The notes under the pieces: model-generated
Database searches by the model: none
What the model was told of the DNA's origin: nothing
Seen by the model: only the letters and a program-made list of their open reading frames with translations
DNA from: Candidatus Saccharimonadota bacterium
GTDB lineage: Bacteria > Patescibacteriota > Microgenomatia > UBA1406 > GWC2-37-13
NCBI GenBank assembly: GCA_016700135.1
Contig: CP065004.1
Span: 420,001 to 452,000, forward strand
Length of the DNA: 32,000 bases
Direction: 5' to 3'
Shown here: positions 2,691 through 18,488 of the stretch, piece by piece
Layout: each line of letters begins with the position of its first letter
Position numbering within the stretch: the stretch's first letter is position 1
Made by a program: the position numbers and the translations under genes

Positions 2691-2727
2691 TAAGTAAAGC
2701 CTAAACTGATAATGTATAACTATATCT

Positions 2728-3382: not shown

Positions 3383-3402
3383 TATCATTCATAACGATTT
3401 AT

Positions 3403-3960
3403 ATGCGAACAAAAATTCATAATTATTCGAAGCCGAAAATCACTTCAAAAAAAATCAAGAGTAATTTTTTTTACAGTAAAAGAATGTATGACGGTGAGGA
3501 TCTTCTTGCCGGTATGATGGATGTTAGGATTCTTGCACGGTCCGGCTCTTGTAGCTGTTTCCCTGATTATACGAAAGTACTCCTTCCCGGCAACAATACG
3601 AAATCGATAAGAGATATTCGAGAAGGAGACACGGTGACTTCATACAATCTTGATGAGAATAGATTGACTGAGAGCAAAGTCATGGAGCAAATTATTCATC
3701 TTGATGCAAAAGTACAGTACTTTATCATCAACGGGAATATCAAGACAACCGCAGAACATCCGTTCTGGGTAAACGGAGAAAGATGGACAAGAGCCCACGA
3801 GATAAAGGTAGGAGATTGGCTGCTTACACCGACAGGTGAAAAAGTGGAAATTTCCGATATCGAGTCTTATTCCGCAGTAGAGACAGTATACAATCTTGAG
3901 CTGGAAGGAGAAGAACACAACTATTTTGCAGAAAATGTACTGGTACATAACCAACGCTAA
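3403..3960 (+). CDS. 51-aa leader-like N-terminal peptide fused to a complete Hint (intein-fold) autoprocessing domain
   Basis: 185 aa. Hint block A is C52-FPDYTKVLLPG...IRDIREGDTV, block B is TAEHPFWV, and the terminal block is VYNLELEGEEHNYFAENVLVHN followed only by QR-stop. The N-terminal 51 aa contain Y8-SKPKI and end in SGSCS directly before Cys52 (codon 3556-3558). Confidence 0.8.
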   Translation: MRTKIHNYSKPKITSKKIKSNFFYSKRMYDGEDLLAGMMDVRILARSGSCSCFPDYTKVLLPGNNTKSIRDIREGDTVTSYNLDENRLTESKVMEQIIHLDAKVQYFIINGNIKTTAEHPFWVNGERWTRAHEIKVGDWLLTPTGEKVEISDIESYSAVETVYNLELEGEEHNYFAENVLVHNQR

Positions 3961-4785
3961 TGTAAGATGTCTCCGTTTTTGAAAAATGATATAACCTTTT
4001 CCTCGTCCTTGGGGAAATCAAGGTAATAAAAGTGATTAAACTCCGCTACAAACTTCAGAAATATTTCCATTTTGTCTTTTACCTGCACACCGTCATAAGT
4101 AAAATCACCTAAAAATAAATTCAGTATCTGCTTATTGTCTTCCAGTTTTGTGACTTTGACATTCGCTCGATTTTCTCAAAAAGAAGATTTTCCTGAGAGG
4201 ATAGCTTTCCGAATGCTTAGTTAGCCACCAATTCCTTTCCCATAACGGATTTTGGAAGCAATGGAAGGTATTCCCAATCTTTAATCAGGACAAATCATCA
4301 GCAAAACGGTGGAACTTTTTCCGTAGGAGTGTACTGATTGTAGTCTTCCCCGCCCCGGATTTTCCTAAAAAAAGATATGCTCTTCCTTCGTGAATAATGC
4401 TTGATGCATGCTGAAAAAATCCGGTATCTTTTATGAGAATACTCAGAATTTCCGTAATAATATAATGAAATTGAGACGTGCTTATGGAATAATAAGTTCG
4501 GATACGATTCGGAGATTTTTGCTCATAGAGATTGATAAAGTGAAATTTGCTTTGAATACCGGGAATGACACTCATGATATTGCTTTCCCGAAACTCAATC
4601 GTATAATCAACCTTTTTGGGCTTTTCCATAGAGACAAAGTCGCGAAAAAGCATCATTATCTCTCGCTGCAATTTGTCGCGAAGAAACACCGTAAAACGGG
4701 GCTTGATCATAACGACTTTAATTGAAAAGCCGATAATATTCAGATAAAAAGTACTCATAGATCCTTGTATAATAATCAGACCCAT
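3957..4785 (-). pseudogene. HPr-kinase-like P-loop kinase paralogue, inactivated (in-frame TGA plus one frameshift)
   Basis: The ORF 4285-4785 ends ...HASSIIHEGRAYLFLGKSGAGKTTISTLLRKKFHRFADDLS-TGA (4285-4287). The same frame continues as LKIGNTFHCFQNPLWERN...YPLRKIFFLRKSSEC, collinear with the 11615 paralogue (ADD..AFQLPLEKK..PIRALFYLSQS). A 1-nt frame change near 4158 then gives KVTKLEDNKQILNLFL...FLKFVAEFNHFYYLDFPKDEEKVISFF...-TAG (3957-3959). Confidence 0.65.
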
Positions 4786-4806
4786 TATAGCCTAATCATA
4801 ATCCGT

Positions 4807-7044
4807 ATGTCAGAGATTCATCCCATCATTCAAACCATTGAGAACAACGATGAGGCTTATATACTGTGGAAAGATCACAACATCAAAAATGCAATTGTTT
4901 TGCATATAGACGCACATTTAGATTACAGAAACGATCGTGCCGGACTTCATATCGGGAATTATCTAAAGCATGCAGTTAAAGAACATCTTGCAAAAACGAT
5001 CTACTGGATAGTGCCGGGAAGCGGCAAACAGTTTACAAGCAAGCGGCAAGCGATCAAACAAAAACTGCGTTCTGCAGGGATTCACGAAGAAATAGTACAA
5101 GCAAAATCAGGACTAACGACACTTATTGACCAAACTCGCTTGATCGTATGCCCCTTAGGACTACTACCGAAGACTATCGAAGAACCATATGTCATCGATA
5201 TTGATCTCGATTTTATGTTTTTTTCTTCCTGTCTTACGGCCGATCGGGTACGTAATATTGGCAAAAGATCGCCGTGGATCTCTACTGAGTATTTTGCAAA
5301 GACAATAAAACCGTTGGTAAAAAGTGCCGCATTGACTACTCTTTGCTACTCGACAACCGGAGGCTGGACTCCTATGAGATATCGCCATTTCGGAGATCAG
5401 ATTTTACATATTTTGGGAACTCAAAAGGACAGTATTCATCAAAGAATTATCGCTGGAAATTTTTTTACTTCGTTCTGGAAATATTTCAAAGATAATACAT
5501 TGCAGCAGGCGAAAAAATATTATCAGTCTGCTTTAGCACTGAATCCGACATACGCAAGTTTTTTCATGACTGACGGTCCTCTGTTCATATTGAAAGGTGA
5601 CTTGAGAAGTGCAAGAACAGAATTTTCCCGACTGCAGCAAATTGATCCTCAAAATATTTATGCAATCTTTGGCCTGGGCCTCGTGGAGCTACTTTCAGGC
5701 AATTTGACAAAAGCGAAGGTCTTGATGGAAAAAGCACGATCAATAACGAGTAATAAGGAAATTGTACTCTTTTTAATATATATACAGTCACAACTTGGTG
5801 AGCACGAGATGGTTCAAGAACTTCTGACGGAGTACAAAAAGAGTACGTTCCCTGAAAAACCGCTACCCACAAATGTTCTTAACGGGATACTCCATGAGAT
5901 CGCGGAAAAACTTAAGACAGAGCATCAGATAAAAAATATCGGACAGATGTATCTGTATCCGAATCCTCACGCGGTCACAGTATGGAAAAGGCTGGCGGAA
6001 TACTCCTCCAATAACATCGGAAACTGGACTGAAGAACCTGAAAGCCTTCGGCATACAGCAGCCGCAATCGAACTTGATCTTATCGAAAAAATGGTTGATT
6101 TATATTTCGAAAACCCTGCCGCATATGGAGGATATATGACATCCGGTGCGACGGAAGGAAATATTTTTTCTGCATGGCTGGGACGTAAATATCTTGAAAA
6201 GAAACCCGTGAAATCTCCTATCATACTTCTTGCCAATGACCTCGCCCATTACTCTATCTTCAAGGCAGCAGACGTAACCGGTCTAACCGTTCAATCCATC
6301 CCGGTCAATACCAAAGATTGGAACACGGATACCGACAAACTCATAAAAACAGTCGTCAAATTAAAGAAAAAAGGTATTTCAAAATTTCTTATACCTCTCA
6401 CTCTCGGATACACAGTCGGAGGGACAAATGATGACGTTCAAACAATTGTTCAGGAACTACGCCGGTTGAAAGAGAAAATGGGTATTGAGTATTTCCTTTG
6501 GATCGATGCCGCACTTTCCGGCCTTACCATACCGTTTCTTAAGAATGACTATAGATCCTATTTCTCTCAGGAAATCCATACGGTTGTCGTTGACTTTCAT
6601 AAGGCTCTCGGCGTCCCGATGCCGGCAGGATTTGTTCTCTACCGAAAAGAATTGGCGGGACCGATAAAAACGACTATCCCTTACCTGTCAACCGGTGACA
6701 GCACTCTCCTCGGTTCACGAAACGGAATTGCTCCAATAGCAGCCTGGATGAGTATCCATCAGTATGGATTTACCAAACTTTCCCGTATCCTTAAGAAAGA
6801 AATACATCGCAAGAATAGGATAATAAGCGAAGTGCGAAGAAAATTTCCGGATGCAAGAGTAATAACTGACAGCGATTCACTCCATGCCGCCATATTAGTA
6901 CATGAAGCGCTTCCTCAATCATTCTGTACACGATATGGGCTGCATCTCCGAAAATATACGATAAACAACAAAGAATACTTGTTGTATCCCTTGTTTTTCA
7001 TGCCCCGATGGGATCAGGAATATGCAAGCGGTCCGCGGGAATGA
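4807..7044 (+). CDS. Three-domain fusion: UPF0489-like N-domain, TPR repeats, and a group-II PLP-dependent decarboxylase-like C-domain
   Basis: N-domain: AYILWKDHNIKNAIVLHIDAHLDY and YVIDIDLDFMFFSS (UPF0489-like HxDxHxD and DIDLDFF blocks). TPR: AKKYYQSALALNPTYA and FSRLQQIDPQNIYAIFGLG. C-domain: GGYMTSGATEGNIFSAW, AHYSIFKAADVTGL, IDAALSGLTIPF and VVVDFHKALGVPMPAGFVLYRK (PLP-lysine D-x-HK block). The track starts at TTG 4765; I prefer ATG 4807 (MSEIHPII). TGTATAAT at 4766-4773 is a possible extended -10. Confidence 0.7.
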   Translation: MSEIHPIIQTIENNDEAYILWKDHNIKNAIVLHIDAHLDYRNDRAGLHIGNYLKHAVKEHLAKTIYWIVPGSGKQFTSKRQAIKQKLRSAGIHEEIVQAKSGLTTLIDQTRLIVCPLGLLPKTIEEPYVIDIDLDFMFFSSCLTADRVRNIGKRSPWISTEYFAKTIKPLVKSAALTTLCYSTTGGWTPMRYRHFGDQILHILGTQKDSIHQRIIAGNFFTSFWKYFKDNTLQQAKKYYQSALALNPTYASFFMTDGPLFILKGDLRSARTEFSRLQQIDPQNIYAIFGLGLVELLSGNLTKAKVLMEKARSITSNKEIVLFLIYIQSQLGEHEMVQELLTEYKKSTFPEKPLPTNVLNGILHEIAEKLKTEHQIKNIGQMYLYPNPHAVTVWKRLAEYSSNNIGNWTEEPESLRHTAAAIELDLIEKMVDLYFENPAAYGGYMTSGATEGNIFSAWLGRKYLEKKPVKSPIILLANDLAHYSIFKAADVTGLTVQSIPVNTKDWNTDTDKLIKTVVKLKKKGISKFLIPLTLGYTVGGTNDDVQTIVQELRRLKEKMGIEYFLWIDAALSGLTIPFLKNDYRSYFSQEIHTVVVDFHKALGVPMPAGFVLYRKELAGPIKTTIPYLSTGDSTLLGSRNGIAPIAAWMSIHQYGFTKLSRILKKEIHRKNRIISEVRRKFPDARVITDSDSLHAAILVHEALPQSFCTRYGLHLRKYTINNKEYLLYPLFFMPRWDQEYASGPRE

Positions 7045-7895
7045 AATTTGTATTCAGTCGGGTCAGAGATACCCGCCCGGAGAAAACTTTGTTTTCTATA
7101 CTGACAGAAATAACATCTGCCGCAGTGAATTTTGTAGTTTATCGGACTGATACAGCTAAACATTTTTTCGAGCGGATATCCTTTCTCAGTAGCCCAACGT
7201 ATCAAAATATCTTTGTCCCAAAAAAATCCGAGTTCTTTCTCTAAAGCAAGGGATGTATACTGCCAGTTCATGTCACCGGTCAAAATGCAAAGATTTTGCA
7301 TCACGCTTCGCATCGCCGTCAGCGTCTCATACTTCAAACTTTCTCCGTCTGACGTGACGAATGCAGAGAAGATCGTGCGGATTGATACATTCTTTTCTTC
7401 CTGAAGAAAAAGCGCATACTCGGCAGCATTCAGGGCTAAAAGACCGCTGTAAAGAGGTAAGCCTTTCCTCTGATTTGTGTCACTACTTACAACCTCCTGA
7501 GAATGCTCGGTGATCTTCCATCTGATCTCTTTCGGAGGCATAGGAACATCCAAGTACTGGACTGTCTGAAAAAGCTTAGCATATTTTTTCTGGAAAAACT
7601 GAGAGAAGAACCGTACTGCATTTTCTTCCCGTTGGATGCGCTTATGTCCTCTCCGGAAAAAAACAGGGTAGACCTGCATCTGATACTCTTCAAGAAGCAT
7701 TCCCCAAAGTATAGTAGAGTCCAAACCACCGGATACGGTGAGGATTACCGATTCTCCTTTTTGAGGCATGCGGAAAACATATCCCCGCTTCTCCTTCAAA
7801 AAAGACTCAATGCATTTCAAGGCTGAAAGGTCTTCAAGCTTTCGCTCTATTAACATTCTCTGTAGTTGTTTACTTGTGAGTTTCGGTAATTTCAT
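7014..7895 (-). CDS. QueC-like PP-loop ATP pyrophosphatase (7-cyano-7-deazaguanine-synthase family fold)
   Basis: 293 aa. PP-loop VILTVSGGLDSTILW, and a C-terminal zinc cluster SCISPINYKIHCGRCYFCQYRKQSFLRAGISDP matching the QueC pattern C..CG.C..C..R...F...G..DP. The start overlaps the upstream stop (ATGA at 7895). Its 3' end overlaps the convergent 4807-7044 gene by 31 nt. Confidence 0.7.
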   Translation of the reverse strand: MKLPKLTSKQLQRMLIERKLEDLSALKCIESFLKEKRGYVFRMPQKGESVILTVSGGLDSTILWGMLLEEYQMQVYPVFFRRGHKRIQREENAVRFFSQFFQKKYAKLFQTVQYLDVPMPPKEIRWKITEHSQEVVSSDTNQRKGLPLYSGLLALNAAEYALFLQEEKNVSIRTIFSAFVTSDGESLKYETLTAMRSVMQNLCILTGDMNWQYTSLALEKELGFFWDKDILIRWATEKGYPLEKMFSCISPINYKIHCGRCYFCQYRKQSFLRAGISDPTEYKFHSRGPLAYS

Positions 7896-8767
7896 CAGTA
7901 ACGAATCATAAAATTGCTTTTCCTTCCCCGTTTAAATTTTTTTATATAGGGAGAATATGTTGAGACTTTGATTTCTTTCTTGTTCGGAAAGAACTGAAAA
8001 ATCCGTAAAAACCCGTTTCCGCCTTTTTCGAGATCCTGAAAATTCTGTACGGCTTGATGAACTGCTTCTCCGCACGTATTAGCACTCATTATATAATTCT
8101 CTCCCGTTTGTGTATGAAAATGACCGGAGAGAACTAAACGGATATTGCAGTTTGTCTTGATAAGTTTATGCCAGATATCCTCACCGGCATTACCGAGACC
8201 GCCATAATGAGATATATCGCTCCGGTACGGCAGATCGTCGTAGACAAATGCATGTGTCGCAATTACGGCCATTGTATCACGGTGCCGTTTCAAGATGTTG
8301 TCAGCCCATTGCAGAATCTTATCTGACGGATCAATCTGCAGATGAATAAAAAGGAGAGAGAATGTGTCAACAACAATATGCTGATAACTATTCTGATTCC
8401 CGAGGTATCCTCCTCCGTACCATGATTGTTTTCGGAATTTCTTTATCGGGAAAAAATGATTATAAGTCTGGAAAGAAACTTGTTCATCGTCATAAAAATC
8501 AGCATCATGATTCCCGGGCGCCAAAGCATAAGGAATAACTCCATCAAGCTTGGACAGTTCTGCCGCCATTTTGTGCCATTGTGTCTGATCCGCTGAATTA
8601 TCATCAACGATATCCCCCAAATGCGAAACGAATCGGATGTTTAGTTTCTCCTTTTCCTTCAATATCCAATCCAGTTGTGCTGAAAAAATTTCAGGATATT
8701 TCGACGCATAGAGTTGTGTATCTGACAAAACAATAACGGAATAAAAGGGATTATGCCGAAAAAACAT
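7895..8767 (-). CDS. Calcineurin-like metallophosphoesterase
   Basis: 290 aa with the canonical motif series VLSDTQ, HLGDIVDD, APGNHD, ATHAF and LSGHFH. Confidence 0.8.
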   Translation of the reverse strand: MFFRHNPFYSVIVLSDTQLYASKYPEIFSAQLDWILKEKEKLNIRFVSHLGDIVDDNSADQTQWHKMAAELSKLDGVIPYALAPGNHDADFYDDEQVSFQTYNHFFPIKKFRKQSWYGGGYLGNQNSYQHIVVDTFSLLFIHLQIDPSDKILQWADNILKRHRDTMAVIATHAFVYDDLPYRSDISHYGGLGNAGEDIWHKLIKTNCNIRLVLSGHFHTQTGENYIMSANTCGEAVHQAVQNFQDLEKGGNGFLRIFQFFPNKKEIKVSTYSPYIKKFKRGRKSNFMIRY

Positions 8768-8772
8768 ATGAT

Positions 8773-9759
8773 TTATTGTATCCTGACACCCATCACATAG
8801 GCGGGATCTATCTTTGCGGAAATAATAAACTCATCTCCCGGTGAAACAGATAACTTTTTGTTTGCAGAGGCCTTCAAGACACCCTGCGGAGGAATATTCA
8901 GATTCTGTGCCAGATTCTGAACATGGTTTCTACTGAGTAAATCAATCTTTAACTTAGCACTTCCCAATGTTCCGAAATGCCCATCTTTATTGAATATTCC
9001 TGTATCTTTGGTATCCCCCACTGCCACTTCAACACGAGAAAAGGTGTACTCATGATGCACTACGATATGAAGGCTTTTATCCTTCACGTAATAATTATCT
9101 CCTTTTTCTGACAACAGGAATGACGGTTTTTCGCTAGAGTTAAGGAGAACAGCGTGCGGATACTGACCTTTAAATGAAATACCTCCTCCAAACTGCTCCC
9201 GAGATTTATGCTTCAGATCTGCAAAAGCAGTACCGGGAGAAAAAATTAAGGTTTGTTTAGGAGTCGTATCCTCCGGAAAAAAATCCATATCAAGAGAGTG
9301 TATAACAGAAGTTGCTCCCACTCCTTTTCCGCTATTTATAATGCATATGGCTTGCGGAAGCAGCTTCCCCGAGTAATATGGCCAGTCATGAAGCGCTTCT
9401 ACCTCCGGGTTATCCTCTTCTCGATATTCGGCAAGTTTATCTCCGAACGGTACAGCTGCAAACTGCTTGGTTCCCCAGAACGTCCAAGAATCTGTTTTTT
9501 TATCAAATACAAGAACACGTGAATACGCAGGTTCAGAATCCCAGTTCTTTTGTGCAGGAAGACTGGCTTTTCGATGTGCGAGCGTAATCAAATCAAGAAC
9601 TTTTGTATGAAACATTTCAGGAATAGACACGACTACGGCTTCACCCTGATGGAGGACAGTATTCAGTACACTTGAAAAAGAACATTCCTTTATAACGCTT
9701 ACTGAATGTACTGACTGAATAATCGTCGGATCGCCGGGAATAATCGGCAGCTTATGCAT
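8773..9759 (-). CDS. Hypothetical protein (328 aa) inside the PqqD-to-QueC-like operon; no recognised domain
   Basis: Long ORF with protein-like composition. It overlaps the upstream PqqD-like gene by 8 nt and lies 5 nt from the downstream gene. I recognise no motif. Confidence 0.6.
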   Translation of the reverse strand: MHKLPIIPGDPTIIQSVHSVSVIKECSFSSVLNTVLHQGEAVVVSIPEMFHTKVLDLITLAHRKASLPAQKNWDSEPAYSRVLVFDKKTDSWTFWGTKQFAAVPFGDKLAEYREEDNPEVEALHDWPYYSGKLLPQAICIINSGKGVGATSVIHSLDMDFFPEDTTPKQTLIFSPGTAFADLKHKSREQFGGGISFKGQYPHAVLLNSSEKPSFLLSEKGDNYYVKDKSLHIVVHHEYTFSRVEVAVGDTKDTGIFNKDGHFGTLGSAKLKIDLLSRNHVQNLAQNLNIPPQGVLKASANKKLSVSPGDEFIISAKIDPAYVMGVRIQ

Positions 9760-10045
9760 GAGAAGATTTTGTGGGTTTCTTTTCGATTAGTAATTTTTTC
9801 TTCATAAGTTTGTCTACAAACTCTTTCGTATCTTTCAGGGCTTTCTCCTGATTAATTTCATACTCATCGACCAGATATTTTACAAGATCACTAAAAGTCG
9901 CACCTTTTTTTAGCTGCTTGAAAAGATCAGCAGCCGTTTCGTTGAGGGTATGCAAAATTGAGGTTTCACCGTCGAAGATAAATACCTCCTCATTCACCTG
10001 CTGGACAACGAGGTCTTTTTTGAGTTTATATTTTGATTTCTTCAT
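9752..10045 (-). CDS. PqqD-family protein (RiPP recognition element-like), copy 2
   Basis: 97 aa. VVQQVNEEVFIFDGETSILHTLNETAADLFKQLKKGATFSDLVKYLVDEYEINQEKALKDTKEFVDKLMKKKLL fits the PqqD pattern (beta strands, then LN.t....w, then a 3-helix bundle). Confidence 0.75.
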   Translation of the reverse strand: MKKSKYKLKKDLVVQQVNEEVFIFDGETSILHTLNETAADLFKQLKKGATFSDLVKYLVDEYEINQEKALKDTKEFVDKLMKKKLLIEKKPTKSSHA

Positions 10046-10311
10046 ACGCTCTCAACTATATGTAACTTGACCAGTGACTGGATAAATGTCTTAACCTCCT
10101 TTTTGGCGTTGTTATTTGATATCTCGTACTCCTTCGTTAATGAAGCTATTATTTGCACCAATGTTTTTTTTTCTTTCAGGGACTGAAAAATGATAGAACC
10201 CGTTTCGTTAAACGTATAGAGTTTTGACTCTCCAGCATCAAAAATAATTATTCCTTCCGGAACCTTCTGAACAATAGCTCCCTTTCTGATTTCATATTTC
10301 TTTTCAGCCAT
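10042..10311 (-). CDS. PqqD-family protein (RiPP recognition element-like), copy 1
   Basis: 89 aa. IVQKVPEGIIIFDAGESKLYTFNETGSIIFQSLKEKKTLVQIIASLTKEYEISNNNAKKEVKTFIQSLVKLHIV. Overlaps copy 2 by 4 nt. Confidence 0.75.
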   Translation of the reverse strand: MAEKKYEIRKGAIVQKVPEGIIIFDAGESKLYTFNETGSIIFQSLKEKKTLVQIIASLTKEYEISNNNAKKEVKTFIQSLVKLHIVESV

Positions 10312-10318
10312 ATCGGGT

Positions 10319-10330
10319 ATAGTATACTAT
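10319..10330. promoter_or_regulatory. 12-bp perfect palindrome ATAGTATACTAT in the 26-bp divergent intergenic gap
   Basis: Read directly. It sits between the minus-strand start at 10311 and the plus-strand start at 10338. It contains TATACT/TATAGT -10-like hexamers facing both ways. Confidence 0.3.
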
Positions 10331-10337
10331 TTTTCAC

Positions 10338-11618
10338 ATGTCTGCAAAAAATAATGTAACAATTGATCTAAGAACTACCGATCACATTAAGTCATTCGGC
10401 CACAGCATGTACCCGATTCTTCACAACGGAGATATTATTTATTACAAAAAAACTCCTTATCAAAAAATCAAACTGAATGACATAATCATCTCCCAAAAGA
10501 ACAACCTTTATGTCACCCATAGAGTTATATATAAAACTTCGGATTATATTATTACAAAGGGAGATAATAATTTAGAAATTGACGAGCCGCTCTTGCCTGA
10601 ATCAATCATCGGTGTTGTAAATAAAGTACAACGAGGCAAAGTAACGTTTATCCCTGAAACCTATTACCTCCTCCAGTCTTCAATATATTACCAACATATA
10701 CATTCCGTGATTAAGGAAATGGAGCGCCATACGATCTCCTATGTATTGCTAAAAGGACTCCCTCTGCATCTAAAATATCACCAGGAACACCCGCGAAAAG
10801 GTTTTTTTGATTTTGATATTCTTATTTCTCCCACAGATAGAGACGTACTTATGAAAATACTGAATGATCTCGGTTTTAAAAGACGATATGATTTCCTTTC
10901 ACCAACCCACGAAAGACTTATGAACAAATCTATCGAAGAAACATGTATGAAGAAATTTGAAGGATTTAATATCGCAGTTGATATCCATTATGAAGCTGTA
11001 TTTATGATGACTCAGATCGGAACACTCAACCCTCTATATCATCAGAGCTACATTGACGGATTCACAAAGGAACTTTTTAACAATACCGTCACTTTTCAGG
11101 AACACGATCTTAAATGTCAGTTGCTTACTGATGAGTATCTCTTCGTATATCTCTCTCTACATTTTTTTCATCATAATTTTAAAAGTCTTCATCGACTAAA
11201 CCTAATCGCAGCGCTAATTCAATCAATTCCACGAGCAAAGCGTCACGGATTCTGGAAATCTGTTTTTTCTATCATTCACAAGTATCGTCTGCAAGGATAT
11301 ATTTACGGAACATTTATAAGTTTAGAAAAATACCTTCCGGCAACAAGTATTCCACAATGGTTCTTGAATAAAATACGACCGGGCAAAGCTCAATGTAATT
11401 ATTTAAAAAACTACTTTCTCACAGAGCATATTTATGAAGAATACAACGCTACCCGCGCCGGGATCTTATTATTTACACATCTATATATTCTTTCATATAA
11501 TCCATGGTACAAAAAAATACTCGTTTTTTTACAACCTGCAGTCATTTTCATGATGGTATGGCTTGTATACTATTACGTTACAACAAGATGTAAAAAATTA
11601 CTCCGTACATTTCTATGA
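10338..11618 (+). CDS. Fusion of an S24/S26-type serine peptidase domain and an NTP_transf_5-type nucleotidyltransferase domain, with a C-terminal TM helix
   Basis: N-domain: SFGHSMYPILHNGDIIYY...VTHRVIY...ITKGDNN (signal-peptidase/LexA-like G-x-SM-x-P block). Middle: ISYVLLKGLPLHLKYHQEHPRKGFFDFDILISPTDRDVLMKILNDLGF, matching the 'uncharacterised nucleotidyltransferase' family seen in lasso and sacti clusters. C-terminal: ILVFLQPAVIFMMVWLVYYYV. Confidence 0.65.
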   Translation: MSAKNNVTIDLRTTDHIKSFGHSMYPILHNGDIIYYKKTPYQKIKLNDIIISQKNNLYVTHRVIYKTSDYIITKGDNNLEIDEPLLPESIIGVVNKVQRGKVTFIPETYYLLQSSIYYQHIHSVIKEMERHTISYVLLKGLPLHLKYHQEHPRKGFFDFDILISPTDRDVLMKILNDLGFKRRYDFLSPTHERLMNKSIEETCMKKFEGFNIAVDIHYEAVFMMTQIGTLNPLYHQSYIDGFTKELFNNTVTFQEHDLKCQLLTDEYLFVYLSLHFFHHNFKSLHRLNLIAALIQSIPRAKRHGFWKSVFSIIHKYRLQGYIYGTFISLEKYLPATSIPQWFLNKIRPGKAQCNYLKNYFLTEHIYEEYNATRAGILLFTHLYILSYNPWYKKILVFLQPAVIFMMVWLVYYYVTTRCKKLLRTFL

Positions 11619-12418
11619 AGAACTCCGTAATTATCCTGAATACTGCCGCTATATATATTGCTATCGATTTATCACGAATAGCTGATCCTGATATCTTAAA
11701 AGCGCTCTCGGATCAAATCTCTACGTTCTATAAGATGGAGATTGTTAGGAATTTTAAGAAGAAACCGGATTTCACCATTTACTACGTTGCTGATGAAGAA
11801 TACCGATTTGTAAAACAGCAAATAAGGAAAGGAACCAGTATTAACTACTTCTTGGAAACCTTTAGCATTGGAGAGGACTCGGCAAAAATCCACTATCATG
11901 TAAGTATTGCTCAATTCCAATTCTTCTTAAAATTAATCTTACAATCGATTCTCGGGTCCCGAAAGGGTTTCATACTTCACTCCTCCGGAATCACAGACGA
12001 TCAGCATGCATTTCTGTTTTTAGGTCCGAACGGGATCGGAAAATCTACCATCGTAGATAACCTTTCACAAAAATATCGTCCCTATGCAGACGATATGGTG
12101 ATTGTCAGGAAAATTGAACGGGAGTGGTACGCTTTTCAGCTTCCTTTGGAAAAAAAACGTTATAAAAAGATCCCAGATTCAAAAATGCCGATTCGGGCAT
12201 TATTCTATCTGTCTCAAAGCAAAAAAACCAAATTACAGAAAATCTCTTCTACAGAGGCTAGTAAAAAGCTTCTTGACCAACTCATAAGAAACGGTCTCAC
12301 AAAAAAAAATATAACATATCTTTTTGAATTTTTAGCTTTTGTAGATCACTACATTCTTGAAACTCCGAAGAAGACTGCTATAAAAACTATTGAAGGATTA
12401 GTCAGCTCTTATCAGTAA
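11615..12418 (+). CDS. HPr-kinase-like P-loop kinase (RiPP precursor Ser-kinase type)
   Basis: 267 aa. GFILHSSGITDDQHAFLFLGPNGIGKSTIVDNL...YADDMVIV resembles the HprK C-terminal catalytic domain fold found in lasso-peptide kinases. 4-nt overlap with the upstream gene. Confidence 0.7.
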   Translation: MKNSVIILNTAAIYIAIDLSRIADPDILKALSDQISTFYKMEIVRNFKKKPDFTIYYVADEEYRFVKQQIRKGTSINYFLETFSIGEDSAKIHYHVSIAQFQFFLKLILQSILGSRKGFILHSSGITDDQHAFLFLGPNGIGKSTIVDNLSQKYRPYADDMVIVRKIEREWYAFQLPLEKKRYKKIPDSKMPIRALFYLSQSKKTKLQKISSTEASKKLLDQLIRNGLTKKNITYLFEFLAFVDHYILETPKKTAIKTIEGLVSSYQ

Positions 12419-12833
12419 GACGTTTTTTTAAAGAATCAATCTCTTTCTGCTGATCTTGGACCGCCTGCACAAGAAGTGATATTACGCCGGCATAATCTAC
12501 CCTCAACAGGCCGGATGTTTCAACAACAGACTCCGGGAGAACATCCCGAACATTTTGGGCGATCAGCCCTGCCGACTCCTTTGAAGTCCCTTTCCATGTG
12601 TACGTAACCGGCTCCAACTTCATCACTCGTGAAATTGAGTTCTTGAGAGGCTTCACAGAAACCTTTAACGACTTATCCGAATAAATAATCGGCAGATACA
12701 GGCTGTTGCTTGCGGCATATACCTCATTCATAAGTAAACCCTCAAGTAACGTATCGTCGTGATACCTTGAGAACAGATTTAATTGTATTTCCTCGACAGA
12801 TACCGACGGTGGAATAAATTTCTTTTTTTGCAT
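12402..12833 (-). CDS. 52-aa leader-like N-terminal peptide fused to a Peptidase_S74 (intramolecular chaperone, self-cleaving) domain
   Basis: 143 aa. From S52: SDKSLKVSVKPLKNSISRVMKLEPVTYTWKGTSKESAGLIAQNVRDVLPESVVETSGLLRVDYAGVISLLVQAVQDQQKEIDSLKKRL. This matches the S-D-x-x-x-K start, the G.IAQ.V..v.PE.V block, the VDY block and the terminal coiled coil of the endosialidase/tail-fibre chaperone domain. Only 52 aa precede it. Confidence 0.75.
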   Translation of the reverse strand: MQKKKFIPPSVSVEEIQLNLFSRYHDDTLLEGLLMNEVYAASNSLYLPIIYSDKSLKVSVKPLKNSISRVMKLEPVTYTWKGTSKESAGLIAQNVRDVLPESVVETSGLLRVDYAGVISLLVQAVQDQQKEIDSLKKRLTDKS

Positions 12834-12837
12834 AGCT

Positions 12838-13329
12838 TTAAAGCAGTTCCAAACTGATAGAGCTCGCCGAATTACTTAGAATATTATAATCAAATATTAT
12901 TCGGATTACGGTACCCGCCGTGATCAACTCCTGCATCTTCTCATATGTCGCAGGCTGCTTTTCGTCCTCGGAAGTTAGAATAACAGTTTTATCGATGGTT
13001 GCCTGATCGAAGTAAAACGAAACCTCTTCCTTCACACCAACAACTTTCACGGTCAGTTCTGCTATCTGAGATGAATCATTCTTACTCAAACCCAGTACAG
13101 TCCCCCTGTACACAAGGGAAGCTGATGCGGATTCCAGACCGGCAGTTTCTGCGATATAGACAGCCTGCCTTCCTTTTTGTTCAGGCTTCGGTATAGGCGA
13201 TGCGGTACTGAGTTTGCTGCCTACAGTCCCTGAAGCATTTCCTTTTCTATATAGAATAATTCCTGCTTCCACTACAATCACAATCAATAACAGAACGATC
13301 ACAGCAGGTAAAAAATATATTTTTTTCAT
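12838..13329 (-). CDS. Membrane-anchored protein TM2 (architectural twin of the 2728-3382 protein)
   Basis: 163 aa. TM helix FLPAVIVLLLIVIVVEAGIILY, P/S-rich linker STASPIPKPEQK, then a small beta-rich domain. Its stop is 4 nt before the S74-fusion start. Confidence 0.6.
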   Translation of the reverse strand: MKKIYFLPAVIVLLLIVIVVEAGIILYRKGNASGTVGSKLSTASPIPKPEQKGRQAVYIAETAGLESASASLVYRGTVLGLSKNDSSQIAELTVKVVGVKEEVSFYFDQATIDKTVILTSEDEKQPATYEKMQELITAGTVIRIIFDYNILSNSASSISLELL

Positions 13330-13420
13330 AAAGCAATAAAGAAAATCTGTTTATCTATCTTTATCATGATACATTAAAATAATGCTTCCCGAAAATTAGA
13401 ATAGTTATATATATTAGTTA

Positions 13421-14875
13421 CTACTGATTTCTTACCGATTTTTCATAATAGCAGTCAAGATTGTTCGCATGACACCAAGCTGAAAACCAATCTCTATCTT
13501 CAAACTGCATTTCGGGATAAAGAATCGTATATTCCCGCAGATGCTTCTCAACATATGACCGTGCATCTTCTTCTGAGCGGACAAGCGACATTAATTCAAA
13601 CACCTTTACTACGTAGCCGGTATCCCGGGGGGCGCGATTTAGTGCTGATAGATAGTACTGCAATGCTTTTGAATTATTTCCTATTGACGAATTGAATCTT
13701 CCAAGAAATGACATATCAAAAGGGACATCTCTATAGAGATACGCATACTTGTTAATTAATATCTCCATTTGATTAAATTTCTGATTTCTATATAAATCCG
13801 CAATCTGATAACGATACCCCTTATCATTTATTGGATAGAGCCGTAACGCCAAAGAAGAATTCCCCCGCGCATTTACGTACGAAGATACGAATATTCCTAC
13901 ACCAAATAGAGCAACAAGGAAGGATACTGATTTCAATAGTATCGAACCATGAATAGATGCTTTTTCTTCGTATAAAAGAGCTCCGCAAATAAAAAAGAAT
14001 ACAAACAAAAATGCCATAAGGTGATAATAATTGAATTCAAAGAGGACAAACAATCCAATAAAAACTGAGCCGATTACATTATTAATAACTCGTTTCCTGC
14101 GCATTTGACGGATTACCTTACGAGTCACCACAAATATGATGAGTGCAAACGTCAGAAACGAAACGATCCCATGTTCAGCAGCGATATCGATAAATAAGTT
14201 ATGGCTTGTGCTGACGACATAATCAATGTTTTTAGAATAATAAAGACTGGCGTAGTAAAAATTCCCTCCACCATAGCCTGTTAAAGGGCGTTCTCGAATG
14301 GCTTGCAGTGCTGTCGTAATAAACCCTATTCTTCCGTTATCAAAATCTTTATAGTGAAAAGCTGTTTCGTCACGGATGACAACTGTACGAAGTTGAGAAA
14401 TAACCGGGATTTCTGTTTGGTCTGCAAACGGAATGAGAAGAAATAGGACTGTTACTAGCGCTACTAGCAGTGAAATTTTATAGTTTCTGATGCTCTTGAA
14501 GACAGCATTGTTCGTGAGATAATCGACCATAATAACTACCAACATCCCAAGATACGCTGACCGCAGATAGCTCAGCCACAACAGTATCGATAATAAAAAT
14601 ACTGATACGATAGATGCTGTCGTTCGCCTATGGCGCATATATACGAAGGAAATTATCAGCAATAAGAATACAAATACTCCTTGGGGATAATGTGTTAAAT
14701 CTACTACGCGATAGATAAGCTGATCATCATGAGTTGGTACTATATTAGAAAAGATAGGATGCTCCGTTAATAATAATCCGCTATACAACAAGCTGAGGAG
14801 TGAAGATACCACAATAAACGGGACTACGTATTTCTGTATTTGATTTGCATTGTTGTAAACATAGATAAATATCAA
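13421..14875 (-). CDS. O-antigen-ligase-like (Wzy_C) polytopic membrane protein with a C-terminal TPR-like tail; main part
   Basis: Many TM helices. Wzy_C signature STSHNLFIDIAAEHGIVSFL. C-terminal soluble part ALQYYLSALNRAPRDTGY is TPR-like. The listed start is a TTG inside the homopolymer-affected region. Confidence 0.7.
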   Translation of the reverse strand: MIFIYVYNNANQIQKYVVPFIVVSSLLSLLYSGLLLTEHPIFSNIVPTHDDQLIYRVVDLTHYPQGVFVFLLLIISFVYMRHRRTTASIVSVFLLSILLWLSYLRSAYLGMLVVIMVDYLTNNAVFKSIRNYKISLLVALVTVLFLLIPFADQTEIPVISQLRTVVIRDETAFHYKDFDNGRIGFITTALQAIRERPLTGYGGGNFYYASLYYSKNIDYVVSTSHNLFIDIAAEHGIVSFLTFALIIFVVTRKVIRQMRRKRVINNVIGSVFIGLFVLFEFNYYHLMAFLFVFFFICGALLYEEKASIHGSILLKSVSFLVALFGVGIFVSSYVNARGNSSLALRLYPINDKGYRYQIADLYRNQKFNQMEILINKYAYLYRDVPFDMSFLGRFNSSIGNNSKALQYYLSALNRAPRDTGYVVKVFELMSLVRSEEDARSYVEKHLREYTILYPEMQFEDRDWFSAWCHANNLDCYYEKSVRNQ

Positions 14876-15095
14876 AAAAAAAAGAAACTATATAGAGGAA
14901 ATATTCAAATGCTGTCTGGATATGTACGGCATAAATTGCTGACAACAGTGTTGTAATGATAAAAAGGATCATTAATAATCCCAAGTTATAAAGAATTCGT
15001 ATCTGTACTTTGGATCGGATATACGTACTAAAAAAGCAAAAAGGAGTAATATAAAGAAGTATCATTGTGTTGTTCTCACCAGGAATAATCCCCAC
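14781..15095 (-). CDS. Probable N-terminal TM segment of the same Wzy_C gene, separated by the A10 (T10 on the coding strand) run at 14874-14883
   Basis: The ORF reads ...AFEYFLYIVSFFF then goes out of frame. Removing one T from the T10 run gives ...YIVSFFLIFIYVYNNANQIQKYVV, which is the start of the 13421-14875 ORF. The text is hydrophobic and TM-like. Confidence 0.5.
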   Translation of the reverse strand: MGIIPGENNTMILLYITPFCFFSTYIRSKVQIRILYNLGLLMILFIITTLLSAIYAVHIQTAFEYFLYIVSFFFDIYLCLQQCKSNTEIRSPVYCGIFTPQLVV

Positions 15096-15180
15096 AAATT
15101 GAGAAGATACAGGAGAAACAAAAAAAGATAAAACAAAATGACGCGAAGTTTTGTAATCATTGACTTAAAGTATACAGTGA

Positions 15181-16887
15181 ATGTGGTTTTTTCACATTTT
15201 AGTTGCTATTATAATAAGTATGCATAAGCAAGCTAATCGAGTAGTGCGGGTGCTTTTTTTCCTTCTTGTATCGTCGCTTGCCCTTTCCTATGCTAAAGGC
15301 GTCTCTGCTGCAGGACAGTGTGGGACACAAGATGATCGGCACTATCTGAATGTGCGTTTTTATGATGAAAACGGCAATATATGGGCTACGAACGCCCCTG
15401 ACGGAGGACAGACAGTACAGCTTTCAGGATGCCGTCCGCCTCCCGAGAGAGCACCTGTACAAGTAGGCCGACCTGATCTCCCGGATACACCTATGGACAA
15501 CTGGGTTGATGGTAGCGGCAACTGGAGGAGATGGATTTGTCGGGACAACCTAGCGACTGCTCAAATTAGAACATATCGCTGTGACACATTACCTCCGAAC
15601 GAGTTTGTCTATATTGATGTATGGACATATCCTCCATATGACCCGAATCTGACGGAATGGACATATATCGATACGGGAGACGGCGAGACATTTTCCGGAG
15701 TCGGGCCTCGGGTGACAATTCCGAATTCTGATTTACAGGATGACTCTAGCGGGAGATACCATCTGAATGTACAGATGGTTCTGGCTACCACCGACATTCA
15801 GGGTTTTAAAGTCAAAATGCCAGGAAACTATACCAGTCCGTCAACCGATAATCAGACGGTCACTCTTGCAAATGGCGCAACAACAATAGCCACGACGACT
15901 GCTAACCCCTATTACTTTCTTGATCTTGATCCGCAGCCCACCTATACGGTATCAGTGACACAACCTGCCGTAAACTACGCCGTCGGATATACTCTTTGTT
16001 TCAATGCTACAAATTGCCATACAAGCGGTATAACTATGGGAAATGCCGCTACTTTCAATTCTCCTGCCGGCGGATACAGCGACCTTTGGTGGCATTATTG
16101 GGAGTATATCGGTTGGTATCGACTAAAACAGGCATCCTTTACTAAACAAGGGGCGATCGTCAACTTTATTCCGGTGAATACCCTCCCTTATGACGCTTAT
16201 GATACAAACCAACCACTCCTGAATATTCGCCAGGCAGCTGAACCGGATGGGGTGGGGCTGGTAACATCAGGGGGCGGGATTGATCTTGGTCCTGGTAACG
16301 GAGCTACCGTCCCGGCTGTATCCCAGAAAAACTGGGCAAAGCTCACATACTCTGCAAACAAAGGATATCTTTCCAATCTCGGATCTTTCCTATCTTATGC
16401 CAGAGCTAAAAAGGAAATAAAAACGATAACCAATATCAATGATCTGGAATCAAATAAAATCAATATTTTTCAGGGAAACCTGACCCTTCAAAACAACACC
16501 ATCAATCCTTCCCGAGACAACATGGTGTTAATCGTCCAGGGCAATCTGACAATTCAGAGTGCCCCCGGGAACAACTTCAATCAGGCGCGAAGATCCTGGG
16601 GGTTCATTGTCACAGGTCAAATCAATGTAAATCCTTCAATAAATGAAATGAACGGGGTGTTTATCGCCAACAACTTCGATCTCGCATACGGCGCAGCAAC
16701 CAGCACAACACCTCTGAAAGTGGTCGGAAATCTGATCTCAAATACACCGCTCACCAATATTAAAAGATATCGTCCTGTTGCGGATTACCAAAGAGCATCG
16801 CTGTATGTCGTGTTCTATCCTGAGTACTATTATGACCTTGTGCCTTACCTCTCTACTATCACACAGGAAGGACGCCAGCTGGAGTAA
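15181..16887 (+). CDS. Secreted protein of unknown function (signal peptide; Thr/Asn-rich; repeated beta-strand-like QGNLT motifs near the C-terminus)
   Basis: 568-aa ORF. Signal-peptide-like RVVRVLFFLLVSSLALSYAKGVSAAGQ; the start may be Met14 at 15220. Near the C-terminus: IFQGNLTLQNNTI, LIVQGNLTIQSAPG and GVFIANNFDL. No family recognised. Confidence 0.6.
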   Translation: MWFFHILVAIIISMHKQANRVVRVLFFLLVSSLALSYAKGVSAAGQCGTQDDRHYLNVRFYDENGNIWATNAPDGGQTVQLSGCRPPPERAPVQVGRPDLPDTPMDNWVDGSGNWRRWICRDNLATAQIRTYRCDTLPPNEFVYIDVWTYPPYDPNLTEWTYIDTGDGETFSGVGPRVTIPNSDLQDDSSGRYHLNVQMVLATTDIQGFKVKMPGNYTSPSTDNQTVTLANGATTIATTTANPYYFLDLDPQPTYTVSVTQPAVNYAVGYTLCFNATNCHTSGITMGNAATFNSPAGGYSDLWWHYWEYIGWYRLKQASFTKQGAIVNFIPVNTLPYDAYDTNQPLLNIRQAAEPDGVGLVTSGGGIDLGPGNGATVPAVSQKNWAKLTYSANKGYLSNLGSFLSYARAKKEIKTITNINDLESNKINIFQGNLTLQNNTINPSRDNMVLIVQGNLTIQSAPGNNFNQARRSWGFIVTGQINVNPSINEMNGVFIANNFDLAYGAATSTTPLKVVGNLISNTPLTNIKRYRPVADYQRASLYVVFYPEYYYDLVPYLSTITQEGRQLE

Positions 16888-16893
16888 GTTGAG

Positions 16894-18126
16894 ATGAATA
16901 CATTATTCACTCAGATAAAGTCAGATCGTATTAGAAAGTACGCTTTGTACGTTTTCTTGTTTTTTCTTCCTGTCCAGCTCGGTACTTTTTTCTTTCTCCC
17001 GATATCATACATTGACGGTCTCCGTATTGACTATCTGGCTCCGGCTTTATATATGACCGATCTCTTAGTCTGCATGCTCATTGCCGTACACTGGAAAACC
17101 ATACGTGATGAGATAATAAAATATACACAAATCAAATGGTTGGTCTTTGCTTCTCTGTTAATTGTGCTTATTCAGATAGATACGGCAATACAGCCTGTCA
17201 TCGCACTATATCGGACGGCAAAGGTAATTGAAGGACTTTTCTTGTTCTTCATTTTTCGCAAATCCGAAATACCGGCCCCCTTGCTGTTAAAAATACTTTT
17301 TTCAGCTGCGCTCACTCAACTGAGTATAGCGCTATATCATGTCCTGACGGGCCATTCTGTGCAGGGAGGAGCATATTTTTTGGGAGAACGTTCTTTTTCA
17401 CTTTCCACACCGGGGATAGCAAAAGTAGCCATTTCAGGTGTAGAAGTACTTCGCGGGTACGGGACATTCTCTCACCCGAATTCTCTTGCCGGCTTCTACC
17501 TGCTGCTGTATGCTTTTGTCCTTTACGCTCCGAAATCGGCAGGCATCTGGAAGTACCTTTTTCTGGGAATATGTATGATGCTCATTGTCCTGTCTTTTTC
17601 AAAAGTAGCCATCCTGGGGGTACTTCTCCTGTCTGCATATTATGCCATCCGGAATCTCCAAAATTGCACGGTGTGTACACTCTCAAGAGTGACGGTACCG
17701 CTCGTACTGGCAATCATTATTTTCGGCACACAAGGGGATACGGAATCGTTGCAAAAACGCGTGTGGCTTACCGATTCAGCCGTAAAAATTATCACGTCAT
17801 ACCCGTGGACGGGAGCCGGTCTCGGGAACTACCTGTATGCACAGTCTGTATTCCCGATACCTTATACATATGTTTTTTTGCAGCCTGTTCATAATGTTTT
17901 TTTACTCCTTATAGCAGAGGCAGGCATACCCGTATTTTTTTTCATTTCTTATGTGTTTTTGCGGTATATAAAAGTGTATTTCAGTAATCCGCAAGTACAC
18001 GCTGTACTCTTTGTGCTTCTGCTTACCGGTATGTTTGATCACTACTGGCTGACACTGCAGCAGAATTTTCTACTGCTCCCTGTCGTATTTGGACTTCTCC
18101 GAAAGCATGAACATGTGGTAAAATAG
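16894..18126 (+). CDS. O-antigen-ligase-family (Wzy_C) polytopic membrane protein
   Basis: 410 aa and about 10 TM helices. Periplasmic-loop block GYGTFSHPNSLAGFYLLL and the signature QPVHNVFLLLIAEAGIPVFFF. Confidence 0.7.
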   Translation: MNTLFTQIKSDRIRKYALYVFLFFLPVQLGTFFFLPISYIDGLRIDYLAPALYMTDLLVCMLIAVHWKTIRDEIIKYTQIKWLVFASLLIVLIQIDTAIQPVIALYRTAKVIEGLFLFFIFRKSEIPAPLLLKILFSAALTQLSIALYHVLTGHSVQGGAYFLGERSFSLSTPGIAKVAISGVEVLRGYGTFSHPNSLAGFYLLLYAFVLYAPKSAGIWKYLFLGICMMLIVLSFSKVAILGVLLLSAYYAIRNLQNCTVCTLSRVTVPLVLAIIIFGTQGDTESLQKRVWLTDSAVKIITSYPWTGAGLGNYLYAQSVFPIPYTYVFLQPVHNVFLLLIAEAGIPVFFFISYVFLRYIKVYFSNPQVHAVLFVLLLTGMFDHYWLTLQQNFLLLPVVFGLLRKHEHVVK

Positions 18127-18135
18127 TGCTTACCT

Positions 18136-18206
18136 TGCCCGGTCGTCTAACGGTAGGACAACAGACTCTGGATCTGTTTATCTTGGTTCGAATCCAAGCT
18201 GGGCAG
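18136..18206 (+). tRNA. tRNA-Gln (anticodon CUG)
   Basis: Hand-folded cloverleaf. Acceptor TGCCCGG/CTGGGCA. D-arm GTCT-AACGGTA-GGAC. Anticodon arm ACAGA-CTCTGGA-TCTGT (anticodon CTG). Variable region TTAT. T-arm CTTGG-TTCGAAT-CCAAG. Discriminator G. CCA is not encoded. Confidence 0.85.
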
Positions 18207-18488
18207 CAAAACTGGATTCGGACGGGAGTGACAGTAAAGATCAGACTATTACAGTAAGCTATAGTCAAAACACTTCCATAATTTTCTTCATCGGTTCTAA
18301 ACTCATCGAGATACCAATAAAGCTCATTTTATATTGACAGCAAAGTCTAAATCGAACATGATTGACCCTAGTTAGGATTCGAACCAATTATTCCTATAGT
18401 CGAAATTGATACGTTTTGTTATACTATTTTGAATATATATTAACAGGACAATATAATTCAAATTCAGAAAAAATATATATAGTACTTA

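Follow-up and report, generated by a model that had tools for sequence, protein, structure and literature searches.

We describe a cluster of the RiPP type (peptides made on ribosomes and modified after translation) in which each precursor gene has its own cassette. A cassette consists of a gene for a small membrane protein of a family that we denote TM-E (subfamilies TM1 to TM5), the precursor gene 1-20 nt downstream of it or overlapping it by 4 nt, a convergent gene for an ScmC-type kinase, and a dedicated PqqD-type gene. The cluster spans positions 658-14875 of the window, by which we mean the whole 32,000-nt stretch of DNA that was analyzed. The window is taken from a 1.45-Mb contig of a metagenome-assembled genome (MAG) of Candidatus Roizmanbacteria, a member of the Candidate Phyla Radiation (CPR), and contains two such cassettes: TM1 is paired with a precursor fused to a Hint domain, and TM2 (IPM65_02425) with a precursor fused to a Peptidase_S74 domain. 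The tight spacing of the paired genes is compatible with co-translation.

Membrane-protein and precursor gene pairs

On the minus strand, the TM2 gene (13329-12838, 163 aa) is followed after 4 nt by the gene of the S74 fusion precursor (12833-12402, 143 aa). On the plus strand, the TM1 gene (2728-3382, 217 aa after a frame correction of one A) is followed after 20 nt by the gene of the Hint fusion precursor (3403-3960, 185 aa). The coordinates, the gene order and both spacers are as given in a preliminary description of the window, which had read the two mirrored pairs as functional units built around two different protease folds. Consensus scans of the gap inside each pair gave promoter and terminator matches no better than chance, and a separate promoter or terminator inside the pair was rejected on this ground.

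The TM1 reading frame breaks at a run of seven A (2998-3004), and IPM65_02360 corresponds to the N-terminal fragment. Deleting one A yields the 217-aa protein ending at 3382, a correction made in the preliminary description and upheld here by nine TM1 homologs of 214-220 aa that cover 93-100% of the corrected protein, and by the run of six A found at this place in one related locus (L004). The kinase gene of the same module, scmC1 (about 3957-4785, minus strand), is also broken: it has a stop codon in frame, and frameshifts that fall within or next to short runs of T and A, at about 4150-4300; its intact orthologs encode 267-276 aa. Long-read homopolymer or assembly error is the simplest explanation and is probably the cause of the lesions in both genes. 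Decay of a redundant module was considered and is disfavored: the TM1 lesion sits in the A7 run, the clearest scmC1 lesions fit indels in short runs of T and A, and another gene of the window, that of a serine recombinase, is likewise fragmented. As both broken genes belong to module 1, real decay of that module may be the alternative.

Pfam and NCBIfam agree on the Hint and S74 domains that had been named in the two fusions. Residues 1-51 of the S74 fusion (12681-12833) form a RiPP-type leader and core, and residues 52-143 (12402-12680) form a Peptidase_S74 chaperone domain (PF13884, 4.9e-13, 49.6 bits against a cut-off of 22, residues 52-103 on model positions 1-57). The domain starts at Ser52 of SDKSLK, where S52, D53 and K57 are invariant in 6 homologs, and is up to 48% identical to the C-termini of phage tail fibres. 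In the Hint fusion, residues 1-51 (3403-3555) form the leader and a Ser/Cys-rich core, followed from Cys52 onward (3556-3960) by a Hint/intein-like domain (PT-HINT, 7.7e-14, 52.6 bits, cut-off 27.7; Intein_splicing, 9.4e-13, 48.7 bits, cut-off 35.8). Position 1 of the intein_Nterm model falls on Cys52 (CFPDYT), and the domain carries a TAEH motif and a terminal VHNQR; because Gln stands at +1 after HN, we infer cleavage rather than splicing. The C-terminal parts of both precursors are thus profile members of Peptidase_S74 and Hint/intein with the catalytic residues present (Ser in SDxxxK; Cys1, TxxH and HN), and cleavage is predicted for both; here they follow a 51-aa RiPP leader and core, not a phage fibre or a toxin. 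The peptide in front of the self-cleaving domain is 51 aa in both window fusions and 51-53 aa in their homologs, and an alignment of the homologs shows a nearly invariant core in the S74 type. In a search of the full-text literature, we met no account of RiPP precursors that carry a Hint or S74 domain.

The two fusions share a leader, KKxFxxPxIxSKKIQxNFFS...DGExLL, which is also present on free-standing Cys/Ser-rich peptides of 59 and 65 aa. We built a hidden Markov model (HMM) of this leader from the N-terminal parts of the precursors then known, leaving out the 59-aa peptide of locus L009. The model matches the S74 and Hint fusions of the window at 2.8e-20 and 1.9e-21, matches all Hint and S74 fusions at 1e-18 to 1e-22, and recovers the omitted L009 peptide (33-212, minus strand) at 1.9e-18. 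A 65-aa Ser/Cys-rich peptide of L019 (3377-3574, minus strand), encoded beside YcaO and dehydrogenase genes, is matched at 2e-7. Because one leader model recovers all Hint and S74 mini-proteins together with the 59-aa peptides, they are RiPP precursors of one leader family, and the three precursor types are a single family with different cores.

The third precursor type has no protease domain. In L007, the gene of TM3 (165 aa, 2644-3141, minus strand) overlaps by 4 nt an uncalled open reading frame (ORF; 2468-2647, minus strand) for a Cys-rich 59-aa peptide with the shared leader (MKKKFVSPSIKSKKVQVNFFSTSRVVDGEMLLSHALLAQSGCGYTIYQCMNPNCTGVCI), which is followed by a gene for a radical-SAM (S-adenosylmethionine) enzyme and a convergent ScmC gene; the same TM3/precursor pair is present in L009. 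These genes are part of a third module beside the cluster (L007 321-4490, on a contig shared with L095; L009 33-796), in which TM3, the 59-aa precursor, the radical-SAM enzyme and ScmC are accompanied by uncharacterized proteins of 276 and 167 aa. The matching position in the window holds a tRNA and a mobile island. Locus L014 has a possible short precursor (10509-10673, plus strand; …KYIKPQSKKKRIYLYRNKLPVIEGLLLAEDAKEY) between its QueC-like and radical-SAM genes. It ends soon after an EGLL motif that lies mid-sequence in S74-type precursors, and its match to the leader HMM is weak (E 4.7).

The pairing is conserved across related loci. A TM1 homolog (46-73% identity to the window protein) precedes a Hint fusion with spacers of 12-20 nt in L002/L013, L003, L004/L005/L006, L093 and L094, so that this adjacency occurs in five lineages (the window, L002, L004, L093 and L094). 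Every S74-fusion homolog that we found (L001, L012, L007/L008/L095, L009/L010) has a TM2 homolog of 161-166 aa upstream (40-65% identity), with spacers of 1-4 nt, again in five lineages (the window, L001, L012, L007 and L009). TM3 adjoins the 59-aa precursor in two (L007 and L009). A TM-E protein is thus encoded immediately upstream of a leader-bearing precursor in 12 lineage/type combinations, with exceptions in L019 and L014 that are taken up below, and the conserved adjacency supports the earlier suggestion that the gene pair is a functional unit. Efforts to widen the family gave one locus from a metagenome scan anchored on the 328-aa protein of the cluster, and four relevant loci among 80 from a genome scan with ScmC. 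Three MAGs (L013, L014 and L015; CAZOSM01, CAZYXQ01 and CAZDDM01) are titled 'uncultured Gammaproteobacteria' yet carry the same cluster, with 46-88% protein identity to the window, and their taxonomic labels look unreliable.

Among 80 loci of phage S74 tail fibres, none has the shared leader or a TM-E protein, and viral contigs yielded only ordinary tail fibres. The membrane protein is therefore not tied to the S74 fold. Because TM3 is paired with a protease-free precursor that has the same leader, the membrane protein tracks the leader-bearing precursor rather than the self-cleaving fold. Of the proposed functional pair across two protease folds, the pairing is retained, and the link with the folds is replaced by one with the leader.

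The ScmC kinase gene converges on the precursor gene in all loci examined, and the repeated unit is one of three genes: membrane protein, precursor and convergent kinase. In the window, scmC1 converges on the Hint precursor gene, and the 3′ end of scmC2 (11615-12418, plus strand), which encodes an HprK-like P-loop kinase, overlaps the 3′ end of the S74 precursor gene by 17 nt. Each precursor type also has one PqqD. Clusters with a Hint precursor alone (L002, L004 and L094) contain one PqqD and one ScmC in addition to TM1 and the Hint fusion, and dual clusters (the window, L007 and L093) have an extra block of PqqD2, ScmC2, TM2 and the S74 fusion between PqqD1 and the Wzy_C gene. The window carries the two PqqD-type leader-binding genes (RiPP recognition elements, RRE) in tandem on the minus strand (PqqD1 9752-10045 and PqqD2 10042-10311; PF05402, 6.7e-14 and 2e-13). 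The preliminary description had proposed a set of genes duplicated to match the two PqqD and two kinase genes. The addition of a block agrees with this proposal; the duplication and diversification of TM1 into TM2, or the reverse, does not follow from it, as the two proteins have no BLASTP match and their profile signal is at the level of a control.

Architecture and relationships of the TM-E proteins

TM2 is a single-pass membrane protein. Its helix, at about residues 6-30, encloses Glu21 and is followed by a P/S/T-rich linker, the invariant segment PEQKGRQAVYIAET and a beta-rich C-domain. TM1 has the same elements: a helix (residues 2-25) that contains Glu18, then a linker, a conserved segment (DPKVIYSHIFYKKG) and a beta-rich C-domain. 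An AlphaFold2 (AF2) model of a TM1 homolog (P0004) shows the N-terminal helix, a disordered linker and a C-domain (residues 99-217) with a predicted local distance difference test (pLDDT) score of about 80-90. The AF2 model of TM2 has the same order of elements with a helix at 6-30, at an overall pLDDT of 50 that is too poor for structure comparison. The shared architecture claimed earlier is therefore well modelled for the TM1 homolog and of low confidence for TM2. As evidence of kinship it loses force, because an unrelated tRNA_anti-like protein of the same window (23048-23491, minus strand) also has an N-terminal anchor, a low-complexity linker and a small beta-domain; the plan is thus common in this genome and not beyond chance. 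Such anchored OB-fold (oligonucleotide/oligosaccharide-binding) proteins (tRNA_anti-like, PF12869) share with TM-E an N-terminus that is short and basic, a single helix and, after a low-complexity linker, a beta domain of about 100 aa. Unlike TM-E, they lack the Glu in the helix and are not linked to a precursor gene; their profile matches to TM-E are limited to the helix.

The Glu in the helix is invariant in TM1 to TM3 (Glu18 in 9 TM1, Glu21 in 5 TM2 and Glu20 in 2 TM3 proteins); TM4 has Glu and TM5 has Gln. It lies about two-thirds of the way along the helix; 5-8 hydrophobic residues come after it, up to a basic or polar stop, and a conserved Lys or Arg directly follows the helix in all subfamilies. 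A regular expression for such a Glu-interrupted helix found 19 of 1,772 ORFs of 120-300 aa, 11 of them family members and the other 8 not genuine-looking membrane helices, which makes the pattern close to family-specific. This pattern and the conserved gene adjacency are the two features that clearly exceed chance. We considered a cleavable signal peptide at 'xEA' and rejected it: the residues at -3 and -1 are not consistently small (F, I and V occur) and 5-8 hydrophobic residues follow, and a continuous membrane helix is more likely from these sequences. A C-terminal xGDx motif is common to TM1 and TM2, and in a multiple alignment the [IL]KxGDx[IV]x[IV] motif and the final strand fall in one register across all five subfamilies.

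TM1 to TM5 match no Pfam or NCBIfam family, and PF12869 gives no match at E <= 0.01. Profiles of TM1 and TM2 found nothing among PDB chains at E <= 10 besides two chance matches, and Foldseek, run with the models of both proteins against viral libraries and PDB, had no match at E <= 0.001. The insignificant Foldseek matches of the TM1 model are mostly to OB-folds, and a small OB-like barrel is a possible fold for the modelled TM1 C-domain. TM-E is a new family, though accessory membrane proteins encoded next to bacteriocin precursors are a known theme.

Common descent of TM1 and TM2 is unproven, and on their sequences we consider it probable. BLASTP gives no match between the two, and a TM2 profile searched with HMMER against 1.84 billion protein representatives retrieved only two TM2-type proteins and no TM1; direct homology was accordingly rejected as a shown fact. 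A full-length hhalign comparison of the two families (24% probability, P 8.5e-4) independently aligns exactly those segments that the preliminary description had called loosely similar. The match is weak, and the tRNA_anti-like protein, used as a negative control, equals it against TM2 through the helix alone (P 8.8e-4), so that a profile-profile match at P of about 1e-3 was rejected as proof of homology. With the helix removed, the TM1 and TM2 C-domains align at E 0.02, a score also attained by 2 of 150 column shuffles; the comparison of the TM2 and TM3 C-domains gives the same count (2 of 150), and that of TM3 with TM1 is not significant (36 of 150). TM1, TM3 and TM4 are linked through their N-terminal 70 residues (hhalign 96%, 3.6e-9; hmmsearch 9e-7 and 2.4e-6 among 15,518 ORFs).

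The two proteins would alternatively be analogous, small anchored proteins recruited independently, with the mirrored pairs reflecting convergent gene order or an architecture common in CPR bacteria. The failure of BLASTP and of the TM2 profile to connect them, the profile-profile signal equalled by an unrelated anchored protein, the insignificant TM3 to TM1 comparison and the recurrence of the architecture in the tRNA_anti-like protein all speak for independent recruitment. We nevertheless regard it as unlikely. The Glu is at the same position in the helix, with the same spacing to a following Lys-Gly, and the control protein has no such Glu; the pattern is almost confined to the family; the GD motif and strand order align in one register across five subfamilies; few shuffles reach the scores that join the TM2 C-domain to those of TM1 and TM3; and all three types lie upstream of a precursor with the shared leader.

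Protein divergence between the window and L007 differs widely along the cluster. The shared enzymes are 69-80% identical, the S74 fusion 61% (74% over its first 51 aa), ScmC2 54%, TM2 39.5% over its whole length and 26% in its C-domain, and the Wzy_C protein about 31%. The TM2 C-domain (12838-13100, compared with L007 9511-9999) is the fastest-evolving part of the cluster apart from Wzy_C, and the segment PEQKGRQAVYIAET beside the linker is invariant.

Other genes of the cluster and related systems

The cluster begins with genes for a YcaO protein (658-1938) and a nitroreductase-type dehydrogenase (1935-2690), followed by the TM1 module. Between the two modules lie genes for an arginase-like/tetratricopeptide repeat/pyridoxal phosphate (PLP)-decarboxylase protein (4765-7044), a QueC-like protein (7014-7895), a metallophosphoesterase (7895-8767) and a 328-aa protein with no assigned function (8773-9759). 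Next to the PqqD genes, a fusion of a signal-peptidase-I-like S26 domain with NTP_transf_5 is encoded on the plus strand (10338-11618; TIGR02228, 3e-15; PF14907, 4.3e-17). Its S26 catalytic domain has no N-terminal anchor, and a hydrophobic helix is found at the C-terminus; these features make the protein a candidate for a cytoplasmic leader peptidase and for a tailoring enzyme. L014 has the S26 domain also as a standalone protein of 142 aa. No regulator genes were found among the cluster proteins in family searches, and no exporter or transporter and no further immunity candidate within +/-10 kb of any locus checked.

The last gene of the cluster encodes a polytopic membrane protein of the O-antigen-ligase-like Wzy_C family (13421-14875, minus strand; PF04932, 9.5e-16). 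It is directly upstream of TM2 on the same strand, precedes TM2 also in L001, L007, L009, L010 and L012, and is found in every related cluster. Two Wzy_C genes around a conserved secreted protein of about 540-570 aa adjoin the cluster in every locus (window 13421-18126; L007 4725-9393). In the window, a tRNA-Gln(CTG) gene (18136-18207) marks a fall in GC content from about 40-44% to 29-35%. The DNA beyond it, up to position 32000, is a prophage-like or mobile island that contains a PIN-domain protein, the serine recombinase fragments (20654-21911), a terminase-like gene (24159-25418, named by eye from its translation, without a Pfam match) and two DNA methyltransferase-like genes (25733-27176, also named by eye).

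ScmC2 matches the ScmC model TIGR04249 at 3.4e-11 and 43 bits, below the equivalog cut-off of 125, and ScmC orthologs in related loci carry the precomputed Pfam assignment PF27840 (ScmC). By these scores, ScmC2 reads as a relative and not as an equivalog. The cluster resembles the SynChlorMet cassette of Haft (ScmC/ScmD) and RiPP systems with an HprK-like kinase, PqqD and NTP_transf_5, in that an ScmC-like kinase, PqqD and NTP_transf_5 are all present, and its leader starts with a KKxYxKPxI-type motif that also occurs beside ScmC genes in Elusimicrobia and other phyla. An HprK-like kinase occurs in lasso peptide clusters of the paeninodin type as well. Unlike lasso systems, the cluster has no lasso cyclase or B2 protease, and its precursors carry Hint or S74 follower domains. 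We know of no precursor-adjacent membrane protein in the HprK-like/PqqD/NTP_transf_5 systems; in the distant ScmC loci that we fetched, the TM-family HMMs match none of the ORFs, and no TM-E protein lies beside the candidate leader peptides. In full-text literature searches, no paper connecting ScmC with these systems came up, and none on SynChlorMet.

Possible functions of the TM-E proteins

Our best guess, held tentatively, is that TM-E is a precursor-specific self-immunity factor of the producer. The guess is made because the arrangement is analogous to that of sunI beside sunA (PMC6391423) and to the LanI lipoproteins. SunI (YolF) is needed for self-protection of the producer of the glycocin sublancin 168 in Bacillus subtilis SPbeta; sunI adjoins the precursor gene sunA, has its own promoter and is separated from sunA by a terminator (PMC6391423). 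Like TM-E, SunI is a small protein encoded directly beside a RiPP precursor gene; the separation of sunI by a promoter and terminator is unlike the spacing of 1-20 nt or 4-nt overlap of the TM-E genes. Dubois et al. are said to have described, in 2009, a single N-terminal membrane anchor in SunI, for which we know of no Glu-in-helix signature. A sequence relationship between SunI and TM-E is neither known nor was one found, and immunity in TM-E is what we infer from the analogy. LanI lipoproteins (NisI, SpaI) of lantibiotic clusters are likewise encoded within the RiPP cluster; they are tethered to the membrane, each is specific for a single peptide, and their extracytoplasmic domain is beta-rich. 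They differ from TM-E in having a lipid anchor at a lipobox instead of a helix, and TM-E has no PDB match by profile or Foldseek. LanI is usually paired with a LanFEG ABC (ATP-binding cassette) transporter, and this usual companion is absent here.

As a self-immunity factor, the TM-E protein would be co-translated with its precursor and would sit in the membrane with its N-terminus inside and its C-terminus outside. On the outer side of the membrane, the cognate mature peptide would be bound or warded off by the conserved juxta-membrane segment together with the small beta-barrel domain, and the Glu buried in the helix may pair TM-E with another membrane component. The Hint and S74 domains would serve precursor processing, releasing the peptide of about 51 aa, and would not be what TM-E is matched to. 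Several observations are consistent with such a role. Wzy_C aside, TM-E alone among the cluster proteins has a domain that could plausibly be extracytoplasmic, none of the loci checked has an exporter or a second immunity candidate within +/-10 kb, and because the TM2 C-domain evolves fast it may be expected to be exposed. The added module brings PqqD2, ScmC2, the S74 precursor and TM2 together. The proteins have predicted membrane helices (AF2, residues 2-25 and 6-30) and their genes adjoin the structural gene at a distance of 1-20 nt, traits that are immunity-like.

A number of points weigh against this guess. By Pfam, NCBIfam, PDB profile and Foldseek searches, TM-E is unlike known immunity proteins in sequence and fold. 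Basic residues are present at both ends of the helix, which would allow either topology. The S74-type core is near-invariant where the TM2 C-domain is 26% identical between orthologs, which is odd for a specific binder, and TM1 evolves like the enzymes and no faster. Antimicrobial activity and export of the peptides are both putative. L019 has a related precursor and no TM-E protein, TM4 and TM5 of L014 flank an ScmC gene and are not adjacent to the candidate precursor, and TM1 is frameshifted in this assembly, though probably by homopolymer error. We separately considered TM-E as a decoy resembling the core (TM2 'AVYIAET..SLVY' and S74 core 'EVYAASNSLY'); this was rejected, as cognate and non-cognate local alignments all fall within the range of shuffled sequences.

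The main rival, which we think unlikely, is a membrane docking or export adaptor with the opposite topology (N-terminus out, C-terminus in). Its cytoplasmic C-domain would bind either the cognate precursor or the complex of PqqD and ScmC, so that the precursor matures, cleaves itself and is released at the membrane; Wzy_C or the C-terminally anchored S26-NTP_transf_5 enzyme could take part. The conserved Lys or Arg directly after the helix agrees with such an adaptor, as does the co-segregation of TM-E with PqqD and ScmC, which are cytoplasmic and precursor-specific. A dedicated transporter is absent from every locus checked, the close spacing suggests co-translation and with it stoichiometric synthesis with the substrate, and TM1 is conserved to the same degree as the enzymes. 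The P/S/T-rich linkers and the fast-diverging TM2 C-domain fit an exposed domain better than an adaptor, however, and L019 manages without a TM-E protein; the membrane proteins are unlike known RRE or chaperone folds, and local alignment of precursors with membrane proteins shows nothing. A further reading, which we hold to be improbable, places the TM-E proteins in an undescribed class of CPR RiPPs whose precursors end in self-cleaving Hint or S74 follower domains. As membrane partners, they would each capture their own precursor at the membrane and couple its autoproteolysis, which frees the modified peptide of about 51 aa, to export. Because the cluster has no ABC transporter, such capture could provide a transporter-independent, precursor-specific release route, in which the buried Glu would contact the membrane machinery (Wzy_C or the anchored S26-NTP_transf_5 protein).

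Less likely, and in our estimate decidedly improbable, is a surface receptor or sensor (for autoinduction or host-cell attachment) or a glycosylated surface protein whose linker is a substrate of Wzy_C as an O-oligosaccharyltransferase-like enzyme. In favor of this, the Wzy_C gene immediately precedes TM2 on the same strand in all S74 loci and is present in every cluster, the linker is of low complexity and rich in P, S and T, and the C-domain evolves fast; the link with Wzy_C is one of adjacency alone. A receptor or sensor is hard to reconcile with an N-terminal tail of only 3-7 residues, the absence of a signalling domain and the absence of regulator genes from the cluster. Self-immunity of the producer remains our tentative preference.

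A small membrane protein beside a precursor gene is by itself a familiar theme in bacteriocin clusters, and the most interesting aspect here is the context, that of self-cleaving RiPP precursors in CPR bacteria. That the Hint and S74 mini-proteins are true RiPP precursors gains independent support from the pairing. The gene order shows which proteins are product-specific (membrane protein, PqqD and ScmC kinase) and which are shared across products (YcaO, dehydrogenase, PLP enzyme, QueC-like protein, phosphoesterase and 328-aa protein). TM-E offers a handle for asking whether the peptides of CPR bacteria are exported antimicrobials, in which case the TM-E proteins would confer immunity, or products assembled at the membrane, in which case they would be adaptors.

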